Below are positions 1,459-57,016 of a stretch of DNA of 64,000 bases, piece after piece (the stretch's first letter is position 1; each line of letters opens with the position of its first letter). Position numbers and translations under genes: made by a program. This DNA comes from Desulfosoma sp. (GTDB lineage Bacteria > Desulfobacterota > Syntrophobacteria > Syntrophobacterales > DSM-9756). Location: contig JBBFKW010000009.1 in NCBI GenBank assembly GCA_037481835.1, forward strand, positions 83,786-147,785, given 5' to 3'. Under the pieces are notes generated by a model. The model saw nothing but the letters and a program-made list of their open reading frames with translations, did not search any database and was not told the DNA's origin.

Positions 1459-2895
1459 ATGCCCACGAAAACCTCGAAAAACCACCTCATCTTCAACGTC
1501 TTGGAAGCGCTTCGCGAAGGGTTTACCCATTTTTCGGGGCCGAGTCGGGTGGCGCTGGTCTATGCGGAAAAGCGCGACGATCCCATGAGGATCTGCGATC
1601 CGGAAGATCTCCTCCGCGGCCATGAACCGAAGTTGAAGGAACTCTATCTGGACAGCGAGGCGTGGCGCGCCGACGCGCCGGATGTGCGCGACATGAAGCG
1701 CTTCGGGCAGATTTACCCTCTGCCGAACCTTAACCTCTCGGGGCTCATCTCCTACGGCGGCCGATCCCGATCCATTTTCTACCAGATGTGGTTTACGGAA
1801 CATCACCCCGACATGTGCTCCGTCCTGCCCACAGAACGGTGGCTCGAGCACGCGGCCTATCTTCTGTCCCACGATTTCGCCACGGCCAAGACATTCTACA
1901 CGGACTCGTCCCGATACGTCCTTCGCGAATACGCGACCCACGCCGTCCACGACGCCATTTTGGACGGGTTGAACCTCAAAGTCGGCTGGGACAGCCGGCT
2001 GCGCATTTACCCCATCTTGGACGCCGTTCTGGAAATTTCCAAAACCCCGGAAGAAGGCGCCTGGCCCCGGGGGAAACTCGTCTTTGTGGAAGAAACGTGC
2101 CTCAAGGATGTTCCTTTCATGGCCGTGTTTCCCCAGGGGGAACGTCCAAGTATCAGCAATGCGAAACACATCCGAAAGATCCTGCTGGCGGTGGAACATT
2201 CGGAACGCTGGCTCGTCTCTGAAGGCCGTACCCTTGTGGGAATCGGCAGGGGGCCTTTGCCGGACTGCCGGATCAGCGCCGAATTTTTCGGCAGTTACGG
2301 CTTTCTTCGCTTCAACGGCCAGCCCATGTGCAGCTTTTCGGAAGGCCGCTTCTACTCCTCGAACCGGCGCGCCAAATTGGTTCAGCTGGAAGAAACCCTC
2401 CTCACGTCGGACCTGGACCCTTCCATGGCCCATACGCTTTTTCAGATTACGGCGGCCCTCGTGCACGGCGCCCAGGAACGCAAGCACGGCTGCACCTTGG
2501 TCCTGGATCTGGGGACCAACCCCCTTTCCATTTCGGGGCATTTGTTGGAAAACCCGCTGGACCTCCAGGACCCCGCCAATCTGGATCTGGCCAAATCCTT
2601 GTCCAAAATGGACGGGGCTCTGCACATCGGGGCGGACGCCAAACTCCATCGGTTCGCCTGTCTTCTGGACGGGCGCAGTGTGCCGGGCGAAGACCGATCC
2701 CGAGGAGCCCGTTACAATTCAGCCCTTCGGTTCAGTGCGGAACACGATCAGGCCATCATCGTGGTCGTCTCTTCCGACCGCCCTGTCTCGGTCGTCCACG
2801 GGGGAGTAGAACTTTCGGCCCTGTGCCCTTGGAGCCCATCCTTCACGCTGAGCGGGCTGCCGCCCACCTTGTCCGATTGGATTTCCCTTGGCTAA
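1459..2895 (+). CDS. DisA_N/diadenylate cyclase (DAC) domain protein with long N-terminal putative sensor region
   Basis: C-terminal HGCTLV...SKMDGALHI...RGARYNSA...VVSSD pattern of DAC domains; the canonical RHR motif reads RYN. Confidence 0.75.
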   Translation: MPTKTSKNHLIFNVLEALREGFTHFSGPSRVALVYAEKRDDPMRICDPEDLLRGHEPKLKELYLDSEAWRADAPDVRDMKRFGQIYPLPNLNLSGLISYGGRSRSIFYQMWFTEHHPDMCSVLPTERWLEHAAYLLSHDFATAKTFYTDSSRYVLREYATHAVHDAILDGLNLKVGWDSRLRIYPILDAVLEISKTPEEGAWPRGKLVFVEETCLKDVPFMAVFPQGERPSISNAKHIRKILLAVEHSERWLVSEGRTLVGIGRGPLPDCRISAEFFGSYGFLRFNGQPMCSFSEGRFYSSNRRAKLVQLEETLLTSDLDPSMAHTLFQITAALVHGAQERKHGCTLVLDLGTNPLSISGHLLENPLDLQDPANLDLAKSLSKMDGALHIGADAKLHRFACLLDGRSVPGEDRSRGARYNSALRFSAEHDQAIIVVVSSDRPVSVVHGGVELSALCPWSPSFTLSGLPPTLSDWISLG

Positions 2896-5560: not shown

Positions 5561-5725
5561 GGAAAGTCCTCCTTTCTTGCCAATGGCGAAAGAATGTGTT
5601 CAAGATGCGCGGCCATTGCGCCGAATTCTCTTGTGGGCTCATACCCCGGTGCACCGAGGTGCGGAAGAACCGCGCAGCCATAGGGTGACGCACAGCTCAC
5701 GCGCTGAAATGGAGCCATAGAAGTC

Positions 5726-6202
5726 ATGGACACGCTGAAAGTCTTCGCCACCGAGGATGGGAAAGGAATGATCGTCTGCCCTCAGTGCGGGTTTGCCCGT
5801 CAGGTGGATGTCGCCCGCTTCCTGCCTCAAAACAAACAGGTCAAGGTTCGGTGCCCATGCGGCCATTCTTTCCGGGTCTCCTTGGAAATCCGAAGGACAT
5901 ACCGAAAGTCGGTCTTCCTCTTTGGAGAATACCGAAAAAAGGCGGACGATGCCAGCAGCCCCTATCGGCAGATGATCGTCCAAGACATTTCGCTGGGTGG
6001 CTGCCGTTTTCAAACCCCCTTGGCCCACGGCCTAAAGATCGGGGATTTGGTCCATCTTGAATTCCCCTTGACCGATGAACGAAAGTCCCTTGTGAAAGCC
6101 GTCGGCGAGGTTCGCCGCGTGGAAGGAAAAAGCGTCGGCGTCACTTTCGTCAATTTCGACTCCGGCTCCGAAAAAGCCCTCTATTTTTTCCTCTTGCCCT
6201 AA
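5726..6202 (+). CDS. PilZ domain protein with N-terminal Zn ribbon
   Basis: CPQC...CPCG, then RRTYRK (RxxxR) and DISLGG (DxSxxG) c-di-GMP-binding motifs. Confidence 0.85.
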   Translation: MDTLKVFATEDGKGMIVCPQCGFARQVDVARFLPQNKQVKVRCPCGHSFRVSLEIRRTYRKSVFLFGEYRKKADDASSPYRQMIVQDISLGGCRFQTPLAHGLKIGDLVHLEFPLTDERKSLVKAVGEVRRVEGKSVGVTFVNFDSGSEKALYFFLLP

Positions 6203-6277
6203 ACGACCATGAGTTTCCGGAGTCGCCCGAACCGGTCGGCGGCTTTCGGGCGGGCTCCCCATTTCTCAATGGGCGTC

Positions 6278-6325
6278 TTGACCGCCTTTCCCTCTTTGCG
6301 ATAAGGTTTGTAAAAATTCTCACGC
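6278..6325 (+). promoter_or_regulatory. Putative sigma70 promoter of the cooS operon followed by a Rex-like operator
   Basis: TTGACC-N18-TAAGGT (6278-6307), then TTGTAAAAATTCTCACGC (6308-6325), an imperfect match to TTGTGAA-N4-TTCACAA. Confidence 0.35.
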
Positions 6326-6455
6326 ATCAGTGCCGGCAGGGCGAATCGGACGGCTTTACGGCCACCGGAGGGACCGTCATGAAGGCGGGCGAGACGGCAC
6401 GCGATGGCAGCACAAAAGCTCTTGCCACAGGGCATGGGCCGGTGATTCCCCTTTC

Positions 6456-6471
6456 TGTCGGGAGAGCGGCA
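6456..6471 (+). promoter_or_regulatory. Possible CooA-type (CRP/FNR family) binding site
   Basis: TGTCG-N6-CGGCA, one mismatch from TGTCR-N6-YGACA, upstream of cooS. Confidence 0.3.
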
Positions 6472-6595
6472 CCCCAAACCCCGGCGCCGCTCGCTCCGGA
6501 GCCGTCTTGTCTCAGCTTACCTGTTTTTGTCCGTTTTTCGCGTCCGTTCCCAGGGCTGAGAGATCCGAAGATCTTTCATGAGGAGGGCAGAAGCC

Positions 6596-8479
6596 ATGAT
6601 GCTCACAAAGGATGAGATACAGGCGCGCACCATCACCGAAGACGGCCGGGTTTTTCTCGAAAAGGCCGCCCGAGACGGCCTTGAAACGGTTTGGGACCGC
6701 TACGAAGCCCAAAAGCCGCAATGCGGCTTTTGCGAACTGGGGCTGAGTTGCCGCAATTGCTCCATGGGGCCGTGCCGGATCGACCCCTTCGGGGACGGGC
6801 CGCAGCGCGGCGTGTGCGGCGCCGATGGGGACATCATCGTAGCCCGGAATTTGGGGCGCATGATCGCCGCCGGATCGGCGTCCCATTCCGATCACGGCCG
6901 GGACCTGGTGGAAGTGCTCCGAAAAGTCGGTGAAGGCCGCGCTCCGGGATACACCATCCGCAGCCCGGAAAAGCTCAAGAAGGTGGCCGCGGAATTTGGG
7001 ATCCCCTCCGACGGCAAGACGCCCGAAGCCCTGGCGGTGGAGCTGGCCCATGCCATGGAGGAGGAATTCGGCACCCGCAAGAAAGCCCTGACGTTTCTCG
7101 GCAGGCTCCCCGAAAAGCGGCGGGCCCTCTGGGAAAAACTGGGGATCACCCCCCGGGGCATCGATCGGGAAACGTCGGAAATGATGCACCGCACCCACAT
7201 GGGTGTGGACAACGACTGGCAAAGCCTGCTCTTGCACGGCTTGCGCAATGCCCTTTCCGACGGGTGGGGAGGATCCCTCATCGCCACGGAGGTTTCCGAT
7301 ATTCTGTTCGGCATCCCGCAGCCGGTTTCGTCCGAAGTCAACCTGGGCGTGTTGAAACCGGACCAGGTGAACATCATCCTTCACGGCCACAACCCCATCG
7401 TCTCTGAGATGATTTTCGAGGCGGCCCAGGATGGGGAACTCACGGCGCTGGCGTCTCAAAAGGGGGCGGCCGGCATCAACCTGGCCGGCCTGTGCTGCAC
7501 GGGCAACGAACTCCTCATGCGCCGAGGCATTCCCATGGCGGGCAACCACCTCATGACGGAACTGGCCTTGAGCACCGGGCTTGTGGACATGATGCTCGTG
7601 GATTACCAGTGCATCATGCCGGCCCTGGGAGAAATCGCCAGGTGTTACCACACGCTCATGGTCTCCACGAGCGACAAGGCCAAGTACCCGCACATGGTTC
7701 ACCACGAGTTCCATCCGGAAACGGCCCGGGAAAAGGCTCGGGACCTGGTGCGGCAAGCGGTGGAAAATTTCACTCGGCGCATCCCCGCCAAGATCCTCAC
7801 CCCGCCCAACACCCCGACGAAAATGATGGCCGGATTCAGTGTGGAAGCCATCCTGGCGGCTCTCGGCGGAAGCCCGACCCCGCTGATCGAGGCCATCAAA
7901 TCCGGAGCGGTCCAGGGCGCCGTCGGGGTCGTGGGGTGCAACAACCCCAAAATCCGACACGACTTCGGCCATGTGACCCTGACCCGACGGCTGATCGAAA
8001 ACGATATCCTCGTCGTGGACACGGGCTGCGCCGCCGTCGCCCATGCCAAAGCCGGCCTCAAGGTCCCCGAAGCCGCGGCTCAGGCGGGACCGGGCTTGCG
8101 GCAGGTGTGTGCGGCCCTGGGCATCCCGCCGGTCCTGCACATGGGCAGCTGTGTGGATAACGTGCGCATCCTGGACTTGGCCGCCGCCCTTGCCAACACC
8201 TTGGGGACGGACATTTCGGACCTTCCCTTGGCCGCCGCCGCCCCCGAATGGTACTCGGAAAAGGCCGTCTCGATCGCCTGTTACGCCGTGGCCTCCGGCG
8301 TGTTCACGGTGCTCGGCACCCCACCGCCCATTTTCGGCAGCCCCAAGATCGTCAAGCTCCTCACGGAAGATATCCGGGGCCTTCTGGGCGCCTCCTTCGC
8401 CGTGGAACCCGATCCGGAAAAAGCGGCGGGCCTCATCGTGGACCACATCCGCCAGAAGAGGAAAGCTCTCGGGCTTTGA
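6596..8479 (+). CDS. cooS: Anaerobic Ni-Fe carbon monoxide dehydrogenase catalytic subunit
   Basis: CGFCELGLSCRNCSMGPC (D/B clusters), HSDH, HGHNP, CCTGNE, DYQC, GCNN, TGC, GSCVD, EKA C-cluster motifs. Confidence 0.97.
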   Translation: MMLTKDEIQARTITEDGRVFLEKAARDGLETVWDRYEAQKPQCGFCELGLSCRNCSMGPCRIDPFGDGPQRGVCGADGDIIVARNLGRMIAAGSASHSDHGRDLVEVLRKVGEGRAPGYTIRSPEKLKKVAAEFGIPSDGKTPEALAVELAHAMEEEFGTRKKALTFLGRLPEKRRALWEKLGITPRGIDRETSEMMHRTHMGVDNDWQSLLLHGLRNALSDGWGGSLIATEVSDILFGIPQPVSSEVNLGVLKPDQVNIILHGHNPIVSEMIFEAAQDGELTALASQKGAAGINLAGLCCTGNELLMRRGIPMAGNHLMTELALSTGLVDMMLVDYQCIMPALGEIARCYHTLMVSTSDKAKYPHMVHHEFHPETAREKARDLVRQAVENFTRRIPAKILTPPNTPTKMMAGFSVEAILAALGGSPTPLIEAIKSGAVQGAVGVVGCNNPKIRHDFGHVTLTRRLIENDILVVDTGCAAVAHAKAGLKVPEAAAQAGPGLRQVCAALGIPPVLHMGSCVDNVRILDLAAALANTLGTDISDLPLAAAAPEWYSEKAVSIACYAVASGVFTVLGTPPPIFGSPKIVKLLTEDIRGLLGASFAVEPDPEKAAGLIVDHIRQKRKALGL

Positions 8480-8503
8480 AGAATTCCGCTGAGGGAGTCC
8501 GCT

Positions 8504-9049
8504 ATGGAACAAAGCGTGAAAGAAAGGGTGATGGTGCGACTGGAGCGGTGCGTCGGGTGCCGTTCGTGCGAAATGGCATGTCGGGTGGCTCATTCCCGAG
8601 GCGGCACCCTTTTGGCCGCCGTGTGTGAGGAACCCAGACCCTCACGGCGGATCTTCGTGGAACAGGCGGCGGACAGCCCGGTCCCTTTTCTCTGCCGCCA
8701 TTGTGAAGATGCGCCGTGCGTGCGCTGCTGCCCCACGGGGGCCTTGGCCTTCGACGAAGACAGCCGCCTGGTAATCTACACGGGGCAGCGGTGTATCGGC
8801 TGCCATGCGTGCATCATGGCCTGTCCATTCGGAGTCATCCAAACCGGTGGAGGCGACGGGTACGTGGTCAAGTGCGATCGATGTCCGGGACGGGATCTGC
8901 CGGCGTGCGTGGAAGCCTGCCCCACCCAGGCTTTGGTGTTGGAAGGCCGCTTCGTTTCCGATCGGCGCCGCCGCACTGCGGCCCGGTTCGTGGAGGCCGC
9001 CCGCGGGGCCCCGCACGTGGAAGACATGCTCGCGTCAGGGAGCCCTTAG
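8504..9049 (+). CDS. cooF: CooF-like four-[4Fe-4S] electron transfer protein
   Basis: Four ferredoxin Cys groups (CVGCRSCEMAC, CRHCEDAPC, CIGCHACIMACP, KCDRC...CVEACP); directly after cooS. Confidence 0.85.
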   Translation: MEQSVKERVMVRLERCVGCRSCEMACRVAHSRGGTLLAAVCEEPRPSRRIFVEQAADSPVPFLCRHCEDAPCVRCCPTGALAFDEDSRLVIYTGQRCIGCHACIMACPFGVIQTGGGDGYVVKCDRCPGRDLPACVEACPTQALVLEGRFVSDRRRRTAARFVEAARGAPHVEDMLASGSP

Positions 9050-9054
9050 ACCCC

Positions 9055-11121
9055 ATGAACGCCGCGCCCCCCGTTCGCACCGTGTGCCCGTACTGCGCCG
9101 TCGGCTGCCACCTGGACCTTCTCGTGGAAAACGGCCGGGTCGCCGGGTTGGAACACGCCGTGGATTCCCCCGTGAACGGCGGCCGTCTTTGCGCCAAAGG
9201 CCATGCAGCCTTGGAAATTGTCAACCACCCCGATCGGCTGCAGAACCCCCTGCAGCGGTCGGCTTCCGGATGGGTGCCCGTTTCGTGGGACCGCGCCTTG
9301 GATACGGCGGCGGAACGAATCCGGAACATCCTGGCCGCCCATGGCCCTGAGGCTCTCGCTTTTTTGTCCACGGCCAAAGGGTCCAACGAGGAAAACTATC
9401 TGGTCCAAAAGCTCGCCCGAGCTCTCGGGTCCAACAATGTGGACCACTGCGCCCGACTGTGCCATGCCAGCACACTTACCGGCCTCGGGCCCATGCTCGG
9501 CATGGGGGCGGCGACCAATGCGCTGTCGGATCTTCGCCAATCCGAGTGCCTCTTCTTTGTGGGATCTAACCTGGCCGAAAACCACCCCGTGGCCTTCCGA
9601 TGGGTGCAGGAGGCCAAGGACAGAGGAGCGCGGATTCTCGTGGCCGATCCTCGGCGCACCCCCACCGCCTGGATCGCGGACCTTCACCTGCCGCTCAAAC
9701 CCGGAACAGACCTCGCCCTTCTCGCCGGCATGCTCCATGTGATTTTTCAGGAAGGGCTTCAAGACGACGCCTTCATCGCCCGTAGGACTCGAGGCGTGGA
9801 GGCCCTGCGCGCTTCCGTTCAGCACACCGACCCGCTGTGGGCGGCGCGCATCACGGGCGTGCCCGCCCGCGACATCGTCCGGGCCGCACGCCTGTATGCC
9901 AAAGCCCGCCGAGCGTCGCTTATCTATTGCATGGGCGTGACCCAACATGTGCACGGCACCGAAACCGTCCGCGCCTGCGCCGATCTCGCTTTGGTCACGG
10001 GTCACATAGGCCGGGCGGGATCGGGCCTGTTTCCGGTGCGCGGTCAGGACAACGTCCAGGGGGCGTGCGACATGGGCGCTTTGAGCGGCCTGCTGCCCGG
10101 CTATCGGCCGGTAACAGATCCGGACGCTCGCACTTTCTTCGAAAAAGCCTGGGGATTGCCCTCCGGAACCTTGGCCGCCGCCCCCGGCCTTACGGTGACC
10201 GAAATGGAACAGGCCGCGGGGCACAGGGTTCGCGGCCTCATCGCCATCGGGGAAAACCCCGTGGTGACCAGCCCGGATAGCCGAAGGACCAGGGAAAACC
10301 TGAAGCGCTTGGATTTCCTCCTGGTCGTGGACCTCTTTTTGACGGAAACGGCCGAACTGGCCCACTTGGTGCTCCCAGCCGCCGCCTGGGCGGAAAAAAG
10401 CGGTTCCCGGACCAACACGGATCGACGCGTCCAATGGTCGCCGAAAGCCGTCGATCCTCCTGGGGAAGCCCGACCCGACTGGAAGATCATCACGGACCTG
10501 GCCCACCGACTGGGATGGGACTCCTTTTTCCCGTACGGTTCTCCGGAAGACATTCTCGAAGAAATCCGCCGGGTGGTGCCCGCTTACGGGGGCATGAGCC
10601 CCCGGCGGCTTGCGACGGCCGCCGAAGGCATTCCCTGGCCGTGTCCGGATGAGACCCATCCCGGCACGCCGGTTCTCCACGAACATCGTTTCGCCACGGA
10701 AGACGGCTTGGCCCGTCTTTACCCCATAGAGTTCCTGGAGGCGCCCGAGCTTCCCGACGCCGATTTTCCCTATTGCCTGACCACCGGCCGTGTGACCCTC
10801 CATTACAACAGCGGCGCCATGACCCGGCGCAGCCCCAGCCTGGCGTCCCGCTCCCCGTACCTTTTCGTGGAAATCCATCCGGAAGACGCCGCACGGGAAG
10901 GGCTCCACCATGGAGACCGGGTGCGCGTCGTGACCCGCCGAGGCGCCCTGGAAGCGCAGGCGCACATCACCGGCAGCGTCAGCCGTGGTGTCGTCTTCGC
11001 GCCTTTTCACTTTCCCGAAACCAATGCCCTCACCCAGAACGTGCTCGATCCGTCCGCCAAAATCCCCGAATTTAAAACCGCGGCCTGCCGACTGGAAAAA
11101 GTGAAAGGGGCCGGACCATGA
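9055..11121 (+). CDS. fdhF: Formate dehydrogenase catalytic subunit, FdhF-like, Cys-type, cytoplasmic
   Basis: CPYCAVGC...LCAKG [4Fe-4S] site, NNVDHCARLCH active site (TGC at 9460), RGQDNVQG, KIPEFK C-terminus; no TAT signal. Confidence 0.9.
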   Translation: MNAAPPVRTVCPYCAVGCHLDLLVENGRVAGLEHAVDSPVNGGRLCAKGHAALEIVNHPDRLQNPLQRSASGWVPVSWDRALDTAAERIRNILAAHGPEALAFLSTAKGSNEENYLVQKLARALGSNNVDHCARLCHASTLTGLGPMLGMGAATNALSDLRQSECLFFVGSNLAENHPVAFRWVQEAKDRGARILVADPRRTPTAWIADLHLPLKPGTDLALLAGMLHVIFQEGLQDDAFIARRTRGVEALRASVQHTDPLWAARITGVPARDIVRAARLYAKARRASLIYCMGVTQHVHGTETVRACADLALVTGHIGRAGSGLFPVRGQDNVQGACDMGALSGLLPGYRPVTDPDARTFFEKAWGLPSGTLAAAPGLTVTEMEQAAGHRVRGLIAIGENPVVTSPDSRRTRENLKRLDFLLVVDLFLTETAELAHLVLPAAAWAEKSGSRTNTDRRVQWSPKAVDPPGEARPDWKIITDLAHRLGWDSFFPYGSPEDILEEIRRVVPAYGGMSPRRLATAAEGIPWPCPDETHPGTPVLHEHRFATEDGLARLYPIEFLEAPELPDADFPYCLTTGRVTLHYNSGAMTRRSPSLASRSPYLFVEIHPEDAAREGLHHGDRVRVVTRRGALEAQAHITGSVSRGVVFAPFHFPETNALTQNVLDPSAKIPEFKTAACRLEKVKGAGP

Positions 11122-11657
11122 ACGCTTTTCTTCACGTGGACTTTCGGCGCTGCACGGGATGTTTCGCCTGCGAGGCGGCTTGCCGAACGGCCCATGGCGG
11201 CGCCTGCCGCGTTCACCTGGCCTTCGCCGACGGGCTTCCCGTCCCTCTCATGTGCCGCCAGTGTGAAAACAGTCCCTGCGCCGCCGTGTGCCCGGAAGAG
11301 GCCCTGGTTTGGGATAAAACCCATGGAGTGGTTCTCCTCGTCGAACGATGCACCCGATGCGGCCTGTGCGCCGTCGCCTGCCCTTTCGGGGTATTGAGCG
11401 TCGATCCTTTTGGTCGGCCGAACGTCGTCAAGTGCGACCTGTGCCTGGGTCGCCGCGCCGAAGGAAAACGCCCGGCCTGCGTGCTCACTTGCCCGACGGA
11501 GGCCATCACCGACGAACCGGACCGTCCTCTGAAGCGCCGTCGCCTCGCCGGGTCGGTTCCGCCTATCGCCGCGCGTCCGTTTTCCGAGAGCCTCCCCGCT
11601 CCGATGGGAAAGGAAGGCGGGGTTCAGGGAGGCTTCAGGGGGAAAAATCCGCGATGA
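11118..11657 (+). CDS. HycB/HydN-like four-[4Fe-4S] protein
   Basis: Four ferredoxin Cys groups; ATGA overlap with the fdhF stop. Confidence 0.88.
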   Translation: MNAFLHVDFRRCTGCFACEAACRTAHGGACRVHLAFADGLPVPLMCRQCENSPCAAVCPEEALVWDKTHGVVLLVERCTRCGLCAVACPFGVLSVDPFGRPNVVKCDLCLGRRAEGKRPACVLTCPTEAITDEPDRPLKRRRLAGSVPPIAARPFSESLPAPMGKEGGVQGGFRGKNPR

Positions 11658-12112
11658 AAGAGACTCCAGCCGATCGACGGCTCATCATCGATTTGGAAAA
11701 ATGCTTCGGGTGTTTTGCGTGCGCCGCTGCATGCCCGGAAAAGCACATCGCTTTTACGGACCATGAAGGGCTGCGGCGTTTTAGGGCTCCGAGCTTGTGT
11801 GGCGCGCAATGCGACGCATGCCGAAAGGCCTGTCCCGTGGACGCCATCGTTTTGGAAGAGGTGGCTTCCGAAGAGCCACGACCAGCTCTGATCGAGCTCA
11901 CATGGGGTCTTCCTTTGACGCGGTGCCGCACGTGCGGTGAGGCGTTCACCACGGAAAAGATCCGCCAAAGCCTCTCGGACAAACTGGCCGCGCTCCTGGG
12001 ATCCGCGGACCTTGCCCTCGACCGGATCCCCCTGTGCCCTTCGTGCCGTCGCGACGATGAAGCCCAACGGATGCGATCCGCCACGCGAACCTTGCCCGAT
12101 CCCCTGCCCTGA
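11654..12112 (+). CDS. Two-[4Fe-4S] protein with HycF-like C-terminal four-Cys metal site
   Basis: CFGCFACAAACP, CGAQCDACRKACP, then CRTCG...CPSC; ATGA overlap with the previous gene. Confidence 0.82.
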   Translation: MKETPADRRLIIDLEKCFGCFACAAACPEKHIAFTDHEGLRRFRAPSLCGAQCDACRKACPVDAIVLEEVASEEPRPALIELTWGLPLTRCRTCGEAFTTEKIRQSLSDKLAALLGSADLALDRIPLCPSCRRDDEAQRMRSATRTLPDPLP

Positions 12113-12409
12113 AGTTTTGAGTTTCGTTTTTTGCTGCCTCCGACACACGATCTCGGACACGCTCCCAGGAGCCTGTCCGAGAAGGGCTTTTCCCCTGAAA
12201 GGGGCAGGAAGGGCGCATCGGTTTTCGCGGCACCGTGCGCGAGAGCGGCCCCATGGACTACGGGCGTCGCGCCCGCCTCTTATGCCGACAGTTGGACACA
12301 CTTCATGCCGCGCATGGCATCACTTCTTCCTCAATGCGCCTATGGCAAAACCACCTCCCATGGCGTTGCGGGGCTCAGAGGTGCGTGCAGGAAGAATGCG
12401 GCGCTTGGC

Positions 12410-12552
12410 GGGCGGGGATAAACCCCGCCCCTACCCAAGAACCGTTCTTGTACCCCTTCCCAAGACCTCAATATGTTCTCGTACGGACAGGCTTTATGCG
12501 CTTCCCAAGATCTCAATCCTTTCTCATTGGCGGTCGGGTTTTGTGCCCGCCC
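12410..12552. repeat. Cluster of GTAG-type REP-like palindromes with an about 45-bp direct repeat
   Basis: Minus strand GTAG-GGGCGGGG-TTTAT-CCCCGCCC (12410-12434); degenerate plus-strand copies near 12481 and 12528; CTTCCCAAGAyCTCAAT at 12456 and 12501. Confidence 0.65.
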
Positions 12553-12645
12553 CAGAATGGGCTTGACACGGCCGCTTTCATTTTCTACTTAGCAGAACCA
12601 GTGCTTGCATCGCGAAATTTTGTGGACTCTGAGGGAGTAAAACCA

Positions 12646-13476
12646 ATGGCGCCGAAGCTGTCGATCGTCGAGGATCCATCCAGGACCTTCATCCAGTCCC
12701 TATCCCGGGGCATGGCGGTCTTGGAAGCCCTGTCCCAGGCCGAACGGCCCCTCAACCTCACGGAAATCGCCGACGCCGTGGGGCTCAACAAGGTGACCGT
12801 CTCCCGGTTTTGTTACACCTGGGTGCGCCTGGGCTACGTGCACCGAACGCCGGACAAGCACTACCAGTTGGCCCCCAAGATGCTCAGCCTCGGCTATGCG
12901 GCCTTGAGCCGCATGGACATCCGGCAGGTGGGAGAGCCTTACCTCCAGGAGTTGTCCCGGCGACTGGGCGAAACGGTCAACATGGCCGTCCTGGACGGTC
13001 TGGACATTCTCTACGTGGACCGTTACGTCACGGAGCCGATCATGAAGCACCCCCTGCACATCGGGGCGCGGCTTCCGGTCTATTGCACGTCCATGGGCAA
13101 GGCCATGGCAGCCTTTCTTCCGACCAAGGAGCGGGAGGACCTTATCAAACGCCTCCATTTTTATGCCCTGACCCATCGCACGATCCTGTCCGCGGAAGCC
13201 TTCCGCACCGAGCTGGAGTTGGTGCGAAGCCGCGGCTATGCCGTTAACGATGAAGAACTTTCCGTGGGGCTGCGTTCCATCGCCGTCCCCGTTTTGAGGC
13301 GGGGATATCCTGTGGCGGCCGTCAACGTGGCCGTGCCGACGATCCGCTACACGGTGGACCAGCTCGTGGAACGATGCCTGCCGGCCCTCAAGGAAACGGC
13401 CCAGACCATTGCGGAGCTTTTGAGCAAGCAGCTTGTCGTTAAAAGGGTTTCCCGACGTTCCGAGGTCGCCCGATGA
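12646..13476 (+). CDS. IclR family transcriptional regulator (PcaR/PobR-like)
   Basis: FIQSLSRGMAVL HTH start, LPVYCTSMGKA, GYAVNDEELSVGLRSIAVP. Confidence 0.93.
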   Translation: MAPKLSIVEDPSRTFIQSLSRGMAVLEALSQAERPLNLTEIADAVGLNKVTVSRFCYTWVRLGYVHRTPDKHYQLAPKMLSLGYAALSRMDIRQVGEPYLQELSRRLGETVNMAVLDGLDILYVDRYVTEPIMKHPLHIGARLPVYCTSMGKAMAAFLPTKEREDLIKRLHFYALTHRTILSAEAFRTELELVRSRGYAVNDEELSVGLRSIAVPVLRRGYPVAAVNVAVPTIRYTVDQLVERCLPALKETAQTIAELLSKQLVVKRVSRRSEVAR

Positions 13477-19366: not shown

Positions 19367-21196
19367 ATGGGATGGATGGGAAAGATCCTTCGGGTCGACC
19401 TGACGGCGGGAACGACCGCCGTGGAACCTTTGGACCGGCAAAAGGCGGTGGATTACGTGGGCGGACGGGGCCTCGGGATCCGGATGCTGCTTGATGAAGT
19501 CCCGCCCACAGTGGATCCCTTTTCTCCGGAAAACAAGCTCATTTTCCTCACGGGCCCCCTTACGGGAACCGGAACCCCCACCGGCGCCCGTTACATGGTC
19601 ATGACCAAGTCGCCGCTCACGGGAGCGCTGACCTGTTCCAACGCCGGGGGGCAGTTTCCCACCATGCTCAAGAAGGCGGGATTCGACGGGATCATTTTCG
19701 AAGGCCGTTCCCCCGAACCCGTGTATCTCTGGGTCTGCGAAGGGGTGGCGGAACTTCGCAAGGCTGGGCATCTGTGGGGAAAAGACACCCATGAAACGGA
19801 TGGGATCCTGCGCCGAGAAACCCGAGACGATGCCAAGACGGCCGTGATCGGCCCTGCGGGGGAACGCCGTGTGCTCTTCGCCGGCATCATGAACGACAAG
19901 GATCGTGCAGCGGGCCGATCGGGAGTGGGCGCCGTCATGGGATCAAAGAATCTCAAAGGGGTCGTCGTGTTCGGCACCCAGAAGGTTCCCATTCACGACC
20001 CCGAAGCGTTCAAGAAGCTCCTGAAGGACATCATGGCCGGCTTCAAGGAAGCCACCAAGAAAGGGCCTTTGCCCCTTCGGGTCTACGGGACGGCCATCAC
20101 CTCCACAGGAACGCAAAACGTGGGCGCCTATCCCACGCGGAATTTTCAGCAGGGCACCTTTGAGCACTGGAAGGATATCGGCGGAGAGGTCCTCACCGAA
20201 AAATACCTGGTGCGGACCAAATCCTGTTACAGCTGCCCCATTTCCTGCGGCCGGGTGACCCGCGTGGCCGAAGGGCCTTTCCAAGGGGAGGGCGAAGGGC
20301 CGGAATACGAGACGGTGTACGCCCTGGGCAGCAACTGCGGCGTGCGGGACTTGGCCGCCGTCATCAAGGCCAACTACATTTGCAACGAAATGGGCATGGA
20401 TACCATTTCCGCAGGGGCGACCATCGCCTGTGCCATGGAAATGTACGAACGGGGCATCCTGGACCAAAAGACCATCGGACGGCCGCTGCCTTTCGGGGAC
20501 GCTCACGGCCTGGTGGAAATGGTCCGCAAGACGGCGCTTCGCGAAGGCTTCGGCAACGAACTGGCCGAGGGGAGCCTGCGGCTGGCCACTCGTTACGGGT
20601 GTCCCGAACTGGCCATGGTGTCCAAAGGACAGGAATTCGCCGGCTACGAACCCCGGGCGGAAAAGGGCATGGGATTGGCCTATGCCACGTCGCCCATCGG
20701 GGCGAGCCACATGCGCGGAGATCCCGCCTATATCGAAATTCTCGGGGTGCCCGTCCTCATAGATCCGCTCACCTGGGAAGACAAGCCCCAGATCGTCAAA
20801 GACTGGCAGGACGTCTTCGCGTTGATCGATTCGGCCGGCCTGTGCGTGTTTTTCTCCGTAAGAAACCTGGTGAGCAAGACCAAAGACATCCGCCCGGTGC
20901 GGATTTTGGAGCTCCTGAACGCGGTGACGGGAGCCGGCTACACCATGGAGAGCCTGCTGACCGCCGCAGAACGGATCATCAACGCGGAACGGCTCTTTTT
21001 GGTCAAAGCGGGCTTCGACGCCAAGGACGACACGCTGCCTCCGCGCATCACGCGAGAACCCATGCCCGTCGGACCCGCCAAGGGGCAGGTGTGCGAACTG
21101 GAAAAGATGCTGCCCGTCTATTACAAGCTGAGGGGATGGGACCCAGCGGGTCGCCCCACCCCCGAACTCTTGGAACGATTGGGCCTTTCAAGCTGA
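19367..21196 (+). CDS. aor: Aldehyde:ferredoxin oxidoreductase (tungsten AOR family)
   Basis: KSPLTG, AAGRSGVGAVMGSKNLK, CYSCPISC, GPEYET, MGMDTIS. Confidence 0.95.
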   Translation: MGWMGKILRVDLTAGTTAVEPLDRQKAVDYVGGRGLGIRMLLDEVPPTVDPFSPENKLIFLTGPLTGTGTPTGARYMVMTKSPLTGALTCSNAGGQFPTMLKKAGFDGIIFEGRSPEPVYLWVCEGVAELRKAGHLWGKDTHETDGILRRETRDDAKTAVIGPAGERRVLFAGIMNDKDRAAGRSGVGAVMGSKNLKGVVVFGTQKVPIHDPEAFKKLLKDIMAGFKEATKKGPLPLRVYGTAITSTGTQNVGAYPTRNFQQGTFEHWKDIGGEVLTEKYLVRTKSCYSCPISCGRVTRVAEGPFQGEGEGPEYETVYALGSNCGVRDLAAVIKANYICNEMGMDTISAGATIACAMEMYERGILDQKTIGRPLPFGDAHGLVEMVRKTALREGFGNELAEGSLRLATRYGCPELAMVSKGQEFAGYEPRAEKGMGLAYATSPIGASHMRGDPAYIEILGVPVLIDPLTWEDKPQIVKDWQDVFALIDSAGLCVFFSVRNLVSKTKDIRPVRILELLNAVTGAGYTMESLLTAAERIINAERLFLVKAGFDAKDDTLPPRITREPMPVGPAKGQVCELEKMLPVYYKLRGWDPAGRPTPELLERLGLSS

Positions 21197-54925: not shown

Positions 54926-57016
54926 TCAGCGAACGCGTTTGACCGTCACGACCGTGTGATCCAGTGCGGGACTGCCGCCGATCATGTCGGAGATGTTTTC
55001 CTGCAGCAGGGTGTCGGCCAAGCCGCGGTTGAAGCTCCGCGCCGCCAATCGGGCTTCATGGCCGAACCCGTGGAGCATGAAGACCGCCTCAGGATGGATC
55101 AGGTCCGTCACATAGGCCTTGATCTGGCCCGACCCCACCCGTGAGCTCAACTCGACCCAATCCCCGTCCTTGATGCCGAGGCGTTCCGCTTCCTTCGTGT
55201 GGATCCACAGGCGGTTTTCGGGAACCAGCTCGTTGAGATAAGGATTGTTCTGCGTGGAAACATGGGTGTGTTGGGCGCATCGGCCGACCATGAGTCGATA
55301 GTGCCCTTCGGGAGGCGCCGTTACGGGCTCATAGGCGGGAAAAGACGCAAAGCCCGCCTTTTCCATGAGCGAAGAGACGAATTCGATCTTTCCGGAAGGC
55401 GTCTTGAACTTGAGGCCCTTTTCCCGATCCCAAAAGATCTGCTTGTCCGTGTAGGCCACGAAGCCTTTCTTTTCGAAATCTTCCAAGCTGAAACCCGTTC
55501 CTTCCAGCTGCCAGCGCACCAGATCTTCCATGGTTTCGTAAGGGAAGAACTGGCCTATCCCGAGCCGCTCGGCCAGCTGCTTCAAGATGACGGCGCCAGG
55601 GCGCGTGTCGTATCGCGGGCTTACCGCCTGGTGGCGGAGGAACATCTGGGGTTTAAGGCCGTTGGCCTGCTGGACGCAATCGAGGCGCTCCAGATAGGTG
55701 GACTCGGGCAGGATCACGTCGGAATACCACGCAATATCGCTGTAGTTGATGTCGATCGCCACCACCAGGTCGAGCTTTTCCAAGGCCCGCTTATTCTGGT
55801 TGAGGTCCGGGATGGAAAGCAGAGGGTCGAAACGATAGGCGATGAGGGCTTTCAAAGGATAAGGATCTTCATTCAATATGGCTAAAGGGAGCCTTTGGCC
55901 CACGCCGTGGTCTTTGTCGGGAAGCGGGAATTCGGGCGTGCCCACCTTGTCGAAGCGCACCTTGTCCACCTTGGGCAGCCCTTCCTGTTCCGTCAGTTTC
56001 CGAGCCGGCTTGCCGCCCACTTCTCCCGGCCCTTTTTTGAAGAAAAGCCCCCCCTTGGCCTCCACGCTCCCCATGAGCGCGTTAAGGATCATAATGGATC
56101 GGCGCACATAAATTTCGTTGGGGTGGCTGGCCCCACGGTAGCCGAAATGGAAAATGACCGAAGGCTTCTTTTTGCTCATCTCCCTGGCCAAATTCACAAT
56201 GCGGTGGGCATCGATCCCCGTTTCACGCTCCGCCCATTCCGGCGTGTAGGGCTGCACAAAATCCTGGAGTTCCGAAAACCCGCTCACCCAGCGTTCCACA
56301 TAGGGGGCGTCGTAGAGCTTTTCCTTCAAGATCACGTGCATCAGAGCGTAATTCAAAGCCAGGTCCGTTCCCGGGCGGATCATGAAATAATCATGAGCCT
56401 TCGTCGCCGTCACGGTCACCCTGGGATCGATGTAGGTGATCTTGGCGCCGTTTTCCAGGGCCTCCATGAGGCTGTTGACGGCCCTGACCTCCACGGCTTC
56501 GAAGAAATTACGACCGTAGAAGACAATGTGCTTTGTGTTCTTATAATCGAAGCCCATCTGGGCGTCCGTGTAGCCGAACAGAGACCGCGCGGCGGTGTTG
56601 ACGGATCCCTTGCAGATGGCGTCATGGGTGCAATGGTTGGGCGATCCCAGGGCCCTCATGAAGGTCTTGCTCGCATGGGTGGCGAGTTGCGTGCGCTCGG
56701 CTAAGACGACACTTTCAGGTCCATACTTCGCCGTGACTTCCTTGATCTTTTCGGCCACGTAATTAAGCGCCTCGTCCCAGGAGGCCTTTTTCCATTGGCC
56801 GCTTCCCCGGGGCCCGGAACGGATCAAGGGCGACTGGACCCTTTGCGTATCGTTCAAAAGGGCGATCCCCGCCGCACCCCGCGGGCACAAACTTCCTTCC
56901 ATGCCCGGCACGTGGGGGTTGCCTTCGATCCACTTGACCTGGCCGTTTTCCACGATGACCTTGATGGGACACCGCACCGAACACATGAAACACAAACTGT
57001 ATACTTCTCTTCTCAT
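54926..57016 (-). CDS. Molybdopterin oxidoreductase, PhsA/PsrA (thiosulfate/polysulfide reductase)-like, no TAT signal
   Basis: CFMCSVRC...LCPRG, GSPNHCTHDAIC (putative Mo-Cys), ILPESTYLER, TPSGKIEF. Confidence 0.8.
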   Translation of the reverse strand: MRREVYSLCFMCSVRCPIKVIVENGQVKWIEGNPHVPGMEGSLCPRGAAGIALLNDTQRVQSPLIRSGPRGSGQWKKASWDEALNYVAEKIKEVTAKYGPESVVLAERTQLATHASKTFMRALGSPNHCTHDAICKGSVNTAARSLFGYTDAQMGFDYKNTKHIVFYGRNFFEAVEVRAVNSLMEALENGAKITYIDPRVTVTATKAHDYFMIRPGTDLALNYALMHVILKEKLYDAPYVERWVSGFSELQDFVQPYTPEWAERETGIDAHRIVNLAREMSKKKPSVIFHFGYRGASHPNEIYVRRSIMILNALMGSVEAKGGLFFKKGPGEVGGKPARKLTEQEGLPKVDKVRFDKVGTPEFPLPDKDHGVGQRLPLAILNEDPYPLKALIAYRFDPLLSIPDLNQNKRALEKLDLVVAIDINYSDIAWYSDVILPESTYLERLDCVQQANGLKPQMFLRHQAVSPRYDTRPGAVILKQLAERLGIGQFFPYETMEDLVRWQLEGTGFSLEDFEKKGFVAYTDKQIFWDREKGLKFKTPSGKIEFVSSLMEKAGFASFPAYEPVTAPPEGHYRLMVGRCAQHTHVSTQNNPYLNELVPENRLWIHTKEAERLGIKDGDWVELSSRVGSGQIKAYVTDLIHPEAVFMLHGFGHEARLAARSFNRGLADTLLQENISDMIGGSPALDHTVVTVKRVR

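Follow-up and report, generated by a model that had tools for sequence, protein, structure and literature searches.

The 64,000-nucleotide window analysed here (Desulfosoma sp., GenBank assembly GCA_037481835.1, contig JBBFKW010000009.1, positions 83,786 to 147,785 of the forward strand) comes from a 99.4% complete genome of what is presumably a thermophilic Syntrophobacteria-type sulfate reducer. It contains a compact unit of five co-oriented genes, cooS-cooF2-fdhF-hycB-hycF (Table 1), which an original prediction had read as a candidate natural carbon monoxide (CO):formate oxidoreductase. The coordinates and junctions of that prediction were found again, the first two junctions being gaps of 24 and 5 nt and the last two ATGA overlaps, and a GAGGAGG motif is located 8-15 nt 5' of the cooS ATG at 6596. 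Family scans agree that the unit holds no gene for a hydrogenase, acetyl-CoA synthase (ACS), flavoprotein or membrane subunit, and the flanking genes are unrelated to it. The expected count of 4+4+2 [4Fe-4S] motifs is likewise borne out by 16 invariant Cys in the second gene product, 16 in the fourth and two 4-Cys motifs in the fifth. The operon is real, intact and widely conserved. It is predicted to encode a natural CO:formate oxidoreductase of the modular, FeS-wired kind represented by formate hydrogenlyase (FHL) and hydrogen-dependent CO2 reductase (HDCR), every functional step of this prediction being read from sequence.

Table 1. Coordinates of the five-gene unit and of other features mentioned in the text (positions in the window unless a locus number is given; MAG, metagenome-assembled genome).
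Feature	Position	Strand	Remarks
cooS	6596-8479	+	627 aa; alternative ATG 6578
cooF2 (CooF/HydN-type polyferredoxin, downstream of cooS)	8504-9049	+	181 aa
fdhF	9055-11121	+	688 aa
hycB	11118-11657	+	179 aa; ATGA overlap with fdhF
hycF	11654-12112	+	152 aa; ATGA overlap with hycB
Intergenic region upstream of cooS, presumed promoter/regulatory region	6203-6595	+	393 nt, between PilZ gene (end 6202) and cooS
HycB C-terminal tail	11520-11657		residues 135-179
PilZ-domain gene	5726-6202	+	directly upstream of cooS
IclR-type regulator gene	12235-13476	+	3' of hycF
IclR-type regulator gene, Desulfosoma MAG	L164:12774-13640		3' of hycF
AFOR_N + AFOR_C gene	19367-21196	+	7 kb downstream, past ABC transporter genes
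Second molybdopterin oxidoreductase gene	55070-56995	-	Fdh-alpha model 295 bits, under cut-off
Diadenylate-cyclase sensor gene	1459-2895	+	DACND + DACNH sensor domains with DisA-type diadenylate cyclase domain
PF04199 'putative cyclase' gene	L085:6982-7779		between cooF2 and fdhF
PF04199 'putative cyclase' gene	L091:4462-5292		between cooF2 and fdhF
PF04199 'putative cyclase' gene	L167:2889-3719		between cooF2 and fdhF
PF04199 'putative cyclase' gene	L169:9576-10409		between cooF2 and fdhF

The first gene codes for a predicted monofunctional Ni,Fe-carbon monoxide dehydrogenase (CODH) catalytic subunit. CooS matches TIGR01702 with 690.9 bits, above the cut-off of 478, and among solved structures it is closest to the carbon monoxide dehydrogenase 6b6v (815.7 bits, residues 7-627 aligned), an entry that we take to be the Desulfovibrio vulgaris enzyme. 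All 20 columns that are Cys, His or Lys in at least 95% of 144 aligned CooS sequences are held by the window protein. They stand for the conserved residues of the B-, C- and D-cluster region, and their presence is in line with the intact Ni-CODH originally proposed. The third gene product is a predicted Cys-type molybdo/tungstopterin formate dehydrogenase (FDH) catalytic subunit. It scores 775.6 bits with TIGR01591 (cut-off 666.25), carries an N-terminal Molybdop_Fe4S4 domain (E 1.6e-16) and aligns end to end with the solved enzymes 9t1s_L, 7qv7_S (FdhF of the Thermoanaerobacter kivui HDCR) and 1aa6 (FdhH of Escherichia coli). Its Cys136-His137 pair aligns with the selenocysteine (Sec, X)-His pair of 9t1s_L and the Cys-His pair of 7qv7_S, and its active-site Arg329 belongs to a column with R in 95 of the 98 aligned sequences. 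No twin-arginine leader was recognized on reading of the N-terminus, and the protein is therefore expected to be cytoplasmic, as had been predicted together with its Cys type.

Three iron-sulfur proteins accompany the catalytic subunits. CooF2 and HycB both belong to the Fer4_11/HydN type by family scan and have four [4Fe-4S] motifs each, the 16 Cys being invariant in 24 orthologues of CooF2 and in 27 HycB sequences that include three from FHL operons. The best solved relatives of CooF2 are 9mqx_E and the HDCR subunit HycB4 (7qv7_B), and the structural matches of HycB include HycB3 (7qv7_A) and the HycB of FHL (7z0s_B); subunits of HDCR and of tungsten aldehyde oxidoreductases figure among the best solved relatives of the two proteins. 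The PNAS paper on 9mqx has 'protein nanowire' in its title. In the window and in the related Desulfosoma MAG L164, HycB ends in a Pro/Arg/Gly-rich tail of 30-45 residues that is not present in the other CODH- or cooF2-linked orthologues.

The best NCBIfam match of HycF is PRK12387, the FHL iron-sulfur subunit (E 6.9e-10, 39 bits, from profile position 37); it stays under the cut-off of 204 bits, as does the HycF of the FHL operon L092 (144.7 bits). Beside its two 4-Cys motifs the protein has a further invariant CxxC...CxxC, giving 12 invariant Cys in the alignment with HycFs of FHL operons; the additional Cys occupy residues 91, 94, 128 and 131 and are conserved in 27 of 27 aligned HycFs, those of FHL included. 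An AlphaFold2 model (pLDDT 91.4) was compared with solved structures by Foldseek. The top matches were the E. coli FHL HycF chains 7z0s_F and 7z0t_F (E ~3e-8, TM 0.65-0.72; for 7z0s_F, E 3.2e-8 and TMq 0.70), and the next ones, 9mqx_A and then NuoI chains, followed only at E >=1e-3 and TM ~0.3 (NuoI ~0.33). The resemblance to HycF takes in the C-terminal extension of the fold. What the window protein lacks is an N-terminal segment of about 40 residues (profile positions 1-35), which is missing in 24 of 24 CODH- or cooF2-linked HycFs and kept in all three FHL HycFs aligned. Enzymes of the complex-I type have this segment packed onto their large and membrane subunits, and its absence here fits the disappearance of the hydrogenase and the membrane arm as partners.

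Among FdhFs without a linked CODH, the nearest were found in MAGs of Anaerolineae (L084, L087, L088 and L092; 50-54% identity), each of which has an in-frame stop at the Sec position. A further locus, L116, gave a partial FdhF match of 512 residues (55%) and has a downstream layout like that of the other four. Family scans of open reading frames from L084, L087 and L092 revealed a canonical FHL operon of the order fdhF-hycB-hycE-hycF-hycG-hycD, where hycE codes for a fused 30-kDa/49-kDa [NiFe] large subunit, hycG for the 20-kDa subunit and hycD for a NuoH-like protein. In a FastTree phylogeny of 98 FdhF sequences, the window protein belongs to a 28-member clade (support 99) composed entirely of Cys-type enzymes: 22 are CODH-linked, four are preceded by cooF2 without cooS (L168, L178, L180, L181) and two are context-poor (L086, L090). 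A fifth cooF2-preceded FdhF without cooS (L213) falls outside this clade and its sister group. Sister to the clade (support 85) are four FHL-linked Sec-type FdhFs. HycB likewise groups with its FHL counterparts in a single clade (support 98).

The FHL ancestry of FdhF, HycB and HycF is thus established by phylogeny and fold, and the unit can therefore be described as the soluble arm of an FHL with CODH and CooF at the position of the hydrogenase. Compared with FHL (E. coli Hyc/FHL-1 and Anaerolineae L084, L087, L088 and L092), the homologous FdhF, HycB and HycF occur in the same order. The unit differs in having neither the HycE/HycG hydrogenase nor the HycC/HycD membrane arm, in a HycF without the N-terminal segment, in an FdhF of the Cys rather than the Sec type, and in the addition of CODH and CooF2 upstream. 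No HycE or HycG gene was detected in or beside the unit by family scan, so that it is not an FHL, and its flanks in the window contain no NADHdh or Proton_antipo gene for HycC/HycD-type membrane subunits. By sequence, the five genes correspond to an FHL-derived soluble arm minus the [NiFe] hydrogenase and the membrane arm, plus CODH and CooF.

A second known system that resembles the unit is the HDCR of Acetobacterium woodii and T. kivui, in which two HycB-type polyferredoxins connect a soluble FdhF with another catalytic subunit. Among solved structures, the T. kivui FdhF ranks second in similarity to the window FdhF (649 bits), and HycB3 and HycB4 are among the best matches of the fourth and second gene products. 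The partner, however, is CODH instead of an [FeFe] hydrogenase, the ancestry is that of FHL, and HDCR is not known to have a HycF-type subunit whereas the unit has one. Membership in, or derivation from, the HDCR family was rejected, since no [FeFe] hydrogenase (HydA2) or other hydrogenase gene is present in the unit or its flanks and the ancestry points to FHL. The core of the original proposal, a CODH in the usual place of the hydrogenase on an FdhF/HycB wire with no other acceptor encoded, has strong support from comparative genomics; the supposed HDCR ancestry has not, the relatives with a hydrogenase being group-4 [NiFe] systems with HycE, HycG and HycD. HDCR is a good functional analogue of what the unit may be. 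Similarly, the coo systems of Rhodospirillum rubrum and Carboxydothermus combine a monofunctional CooS with an adjacent four-cluster CooF that feeds a NuoI/HycF-type FeS subunit. All three elements recur in the window, where FdhF would take the place of the energy-converting hydrogenase as terminal enzyme and no membrane subunit is encoded; the flanks of cooS-cooF2 contain no energy-converting hydrogenase genes.

The distribution of the gene order was analyzed in three scans, limited to one genome per species, with CooS, FdhF and an alignment of CooF2 as queries, and the five window proteins were mapped by tblastn onto every locus found. The adjacency of cooS and fdhF, a synteny that the original prediction had marked as worth searching for, was found to recur in bacteria and archaea, and the idea that the cluster might be confined to its source genome had to be abandoned. 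Counting the window, 21 distinct loci have the complete order cooS-cooF2-fdhF-hycB-hycF, and they cover three phyla and two domains: five are from Thermodesulfobacteriota of the Syntrophobacteria type (the window, L164, L004, L166, L005), 12 from Chloroflexota (L085, L089, L091, L167, L169, L171, L172, L174, L176, L177, L184, L187) and four from archaeal Methanotrichaceae (L093, L094, L191, L201). Duplicates were counted once (L165=L004, L183=L005, L175=L085, L203=L093, L194=L094). Additional partial loci are L186, with a fragmented fdhF, and L012, L173 and L179, which are cut by contig ends. A presumed HycB-HycF fusion in L166 was ruled out by a stop codon in the translation. The closest relatives are a Desulfosoma MAG (CooS 94%, CooF2 84% identity) and Desulfacinum species (CooS 84-86%), and two thermophilic type strains available in culture, Desulfacinum infernum DSM 9756 and D. 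hydrothermale DSM 13146, carry the unit.

In a tree of 144 CooS sequences, the FDH-linked members form three separate clades (Anaerolineae; Chloroflexota with Methanotrichaceae; Syntrophobacteria), with at least five state changes. The Syntrophobacteria clade sits within CODHs of the ordinary cooF-cooS kind. Different CODHs have therefore been combined with the FDH module. Only three of the 80 nearest CooS relatives have FDH genes at their loci; most of the others are simple pairs, a cooF followed by cooS, with varying genes downstream. L005 and L012 retain the native upstream cooF in addition to the downstream cooF2. In the CooF tree, CooF2 groups with CooFs encoded downstream of cooS, outside a 72-member clade of upstream CooFs.

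The split loci bear most directly on the coupling of the two enzymes. At four loci (L168, L178, L180, L181), cooF2-fdhF-hycB-hycF occurs without cooS, and in three of these cases the same MAG has a cooS without an adjoining cooF elsewhere (L006/L168, L028/L180, L015/L181); a cooS lacking an adjacent cooF is seen at only eight of the 80 nearest CooS loci. This pattern would be expected if CooF2 were the CODH-docking end of the FDH wire, and it is the strongest argument for a direct coupling that we infer from the gene arrangements.

Taken together, the evidence leans modestly towards a soluble cytoplasmic CO:formate oxidoreductase. CooS would oxidize CO to CO2, the electrons would pass through the approximately ten [4Fe-4S] clusters of CooF2, HycF and HycB to FdhF, and FdhF would reduce CO2 to formate, the net reaction being CO + H2O -> HCOO- + H+. 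The CooF-type adaptor would in this way plug the FHL soluble arm (FdhF-HycB-HycF) onto the CODH. With potentials of -520 mV for CO2/CO and about -430 mV for CO2/formate, the conversion is exergonic by ~17-19 kJ/mol at standard conditions and near-reversible at trace CO, and no ion translocation is expected since there is no membrane subunit. A likely role would be CO scavenging or detoxification, with the formate possibly passing to formyl-tetrahydrofolate synthetase or to syntrophic partners. Co-transcription of the five genes, assembly of their products, how the carriers are ordered in the wire, which way the electrons flow and what the unit does physiologically are each inferred from the sequences. 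A more far-reaching scenario, to which we would give somewhat less than an even chance, is that a CO:formate oxidoreductase independent of ferredoxin arose a single time, when CODH replaced the [NiFe] hydrogenase and membrane arm of an FHL by way of a CooF-type adaptor docked on the shortened HycF, and that horizontal transfer then carried the four genes of the adaptor-FDH module through Chloroflexota, Syntrophobacteria and Methanothrix onto at least three CODH lineages. Syntrophic and methanogenic communities would then obtain formate directly from the oxidation of CO.

Several observations weigh against a single coupled enzyme, the main competitor of which is a pair of ferredoxin-linked modules that are only co-located and co-regulated and whose electrons would meet only in the soluble ferredoxin pool. 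CooS-CooF2 would then be a CO:ferredoxin oxidoreductase, and FdhF-HycB-HycF a formate:ferredoxin oxidoreductase or a ferredoxin-dependent CO2 reductase. Each half does exist alone: 24 loci have cooS-cooF of the same subfamily and no fdhF despite sufficient room on the contig, many of them in Methanothrix and others in lineages such as Syntrophobacter, and at L086 fdhF-hycB-hycF is preceded by no cooS or cooF. Moreover, seven Chloroflexota loci have unrelated genes or 0.8-3.2 kb of extra sequence between cooF2 and fdhF (the genes include a PF04199 cyclase, DUF4870, PIN, DJ-1 and an acyl-CoA synthetase-like protein), which makes the two halves separable. The source genome also encodes a second CODH, ACS, formyl-tetrahydrofolate synthetase, a Sec-type FdhA with a further Sec-containing formate dehydrogenase-like gene, several [NiFe] hydrogenases, complex I and an Ech hydrogenase, and with the other FdhA, ACS, the synthetase and Ech at hand, CO and formate could also be processed via the ferredoxin pool. 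In addition, HDCR-type FdhF/HycB modules can accept electrons from CODH-reduced ferredoxin, according to the available part of PMC9166738.

Further points count against the coupled enzyme. The cooF2 proteins do not form one exclusive clade, the window group (n=7, support 78) being apart from the Chloroflexota/Methanotrichaceae group; a single clade co-evolving with FdhF was considered and is not supported by the CooF tree. A fusion (Rosetta-stone) search of HycF against longer proteins scored nothing, which is weak evidence. Finally, the 99.4%-complete genome yielded no FocA-family formate channel, so that a formate-export role would lack its usual partner, and formate export or cycling through FocA was discarded as a role.

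On the other side, cooF2 stays by fdhF-hycB-hycF when cooS is elsewhere, and those cooS genes are then without a cooF (three MAGs). The 22 CODH-linked members of the FdhF clade lie directly downstream of cooS-cooF2, and the five-gene order is kept across two domains although the CODH partner was swapped at least three times. Two merely co-located modules are on these grounds judged unlikely, if still a serious competitor. As to the cooS-cooF-only Methanothrix loci (L195, L196, L200, L204-L207, L209, L212, L214, L216, L219-L221, L225, L227), they nest inside the FDH-linked Methanotrichaceae clade of the CooS tree, which suggests a secondary loss of the FDH half.

The Ech hydrogenase of the source genome, encoded on contig C7, raises a different possibility. 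CODH-CooF2 and FdhF-HycB-HycF might dock in trans on a separate group-4 [NiFe] hydrogenase of this kind and produce H2 from CO and formate, as a split FHL/CODH-ECH (energy-converting hydrogenase) system; the position of HycF next to the hydrogenase small subunit in the gene order of FHL operons would fit such a partnership. The C7 locus, however, carries its own NuoB-like and NuoI-like FeS subunits. In tblastn maps with the five window proteins as sole queries, the hycB-hycF interval is too short for a hydrogenase large subunit at all 21 complete loci, in contrast to the FHL operons, and no hydrogenase is encoded downstream at the family-scanned loci (the window, L164, L005 and L085). Together with the uniform absence of the N-terminal segment from the linked HycFs, this renders docking on Ech improbable. 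A second complete FHL in the genome was also dismissed: the FdhA-like match on contig C1 represents the NuoG encoded by a complex I operon, and the group-4 hydrogenase on C7 is the Ech with FeS subunits of its own.

The same complex could in principle run backwards, with formate oxidation driving the reduction of CO2 to CO at very low CO, for instance to supply ACS. The two couples are ~90-100 mV apart, so that the direction is set by concentrations, and the genome has ACS as well as formyl-tetrahydrofolate synthetase. A formamidase-like PF04199 gene in four Chloroflexota clusters (L085, L091, L167, L169) could hint at formate as the substrate; the family includes kynurenine formamidase, which releases formate. 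At L091, a DUF4870 gene is also found between cooF2 and fdhF. The reverse reaction is nevertheless uphill at standard conditions, and CODH/ACS makes its own CO internally. Operation in this direction thus appears very improbable, and formation of formate from CO is retained as the favoured activity of the complex.

How far such a complex is known can be judged from the literature. A close counterpart is the synthetic CO:formate oxidoreductase (CFOR) of Thermococcus onnurineus, which shares the proposed CO-to-formate chemistry through a CODH and an FDH joined by FeS proteins; in the available part of the report it is an engineered Fdh3B-CodhA fusion (PMC9166738), whereas the unit consists of separate natural subunits that include a HycF-type adaptor. 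As far as the accessible text of two papers goes, direct electron transfer or coupling between CODH and FDH had not been found in nature (PMC9166738, 2022; PMC13644391, 2026), and a synthetic version built as an FeS-protein fusion works (PMC9166738, PMC13644391). The closest solved structure, 6b6v, which we take to be the CODH of Desulfovibrio (Nitratidesulfovibrio) vulgaris, has the same N-terminal Cys pattern in its alignment with the window CooS. PMC13056359 names the D. vulgaris enzyme as clade E and places only a regulator and cooC beside its gene; the window cooS differs in heading a five-gene FDH operon. Genomic-context surveys class fdh neighbours as 'one-carbon pool' in their available sections (PMC13056359, PMC13240472). 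Data S1 of the latter (2026), in the part at hand, lists clusters of D. infernum, D. hydrothermale and a Desulfacinum MAG with the COG string CooS-CooF-FdhA-HycB-ferredoxin, labelled 'One carbon Pool' and clade E for Desulfacinum, with no functional reading alongside. The adjacency of cooS and fdhF is therefore already on record. No description of the cooS-cooF-fdhF-hycB-hycF unit or of a native CO:formate oxidoreductase was retrieved from the full-text literature, subscription journals lying largely outside its coverage. The original statement that no native complex of this kind had been characterised stands to that extent, with the qualification that the gene adjacency had been tabulated.

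Direct enzymatic conversion of CO to formate is a biotechnological target for the valorisation of syngas and off-gas, and until now has depended on viologens, on separate enzymes or on an engineered fusion through FeS proteins. If the proposed activity is real, a native five-subunit enzyme would offer a ready design for wiring two CO2-converting metalloenzymes, and would illustrate that modular respiratory-type complexes evolve by swapping catalytic heads. It would also add a hydrogen-independent CO-to-formate route to anaerobic carbon cycling.

The intergenic region ahead of cooS shows no sigma-70-like site, and scans of positions 5600-13000 returned no promoter-like sites (0.8 expected) and six terminator-like sites (9.0 expected), neither of them above chance. 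The upstream flank, entirely on the plus strand, encodes a diadenylate-cyclase sensor protein, a sugar-phosphate isomerase-like protein, lipid-head-group enzymes and the PilZ protein next to cooS; COG5581 presumably denotes this PilZ family. According to the part of Data S1 available for PMC13240472, COG5581 adjoins cooS in D. infernum and in one Desulfacinum MAG as well. The PilZ-cooS adjacency is a conserved synteny within the family, and a regulatory tie of the unit to cyclic di-GMP is possible from this arrangement. Downstream follow an IclR regulator, which is shared with the Desulfosoma MAG L164, a BKACE enzyme and a Liv-type ABC transporter. Beyond the transporter genes lies a tungsten-type aldehyde:ferredoxin oxidoreductase gene, and a second molybdopterin oxidoreductase is encoded far downstream on the minus strand.

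A different arrangement was observed in two Desulfatitalea MAGs (L058:15218-17907, L061:15204-17893), in which genes for a molybdopterin oxidoreductase of divergent sequence and for a HycB-like protein lie ~3.4 kb downstream of a cooF-cooS pair. This oxidoreductase shares 28-29% identity with FdhF, with Trp and Gly in place of the Sec and His residues; it may represent another, non-FDH, molybdoenzyme adjacent to a CODH.

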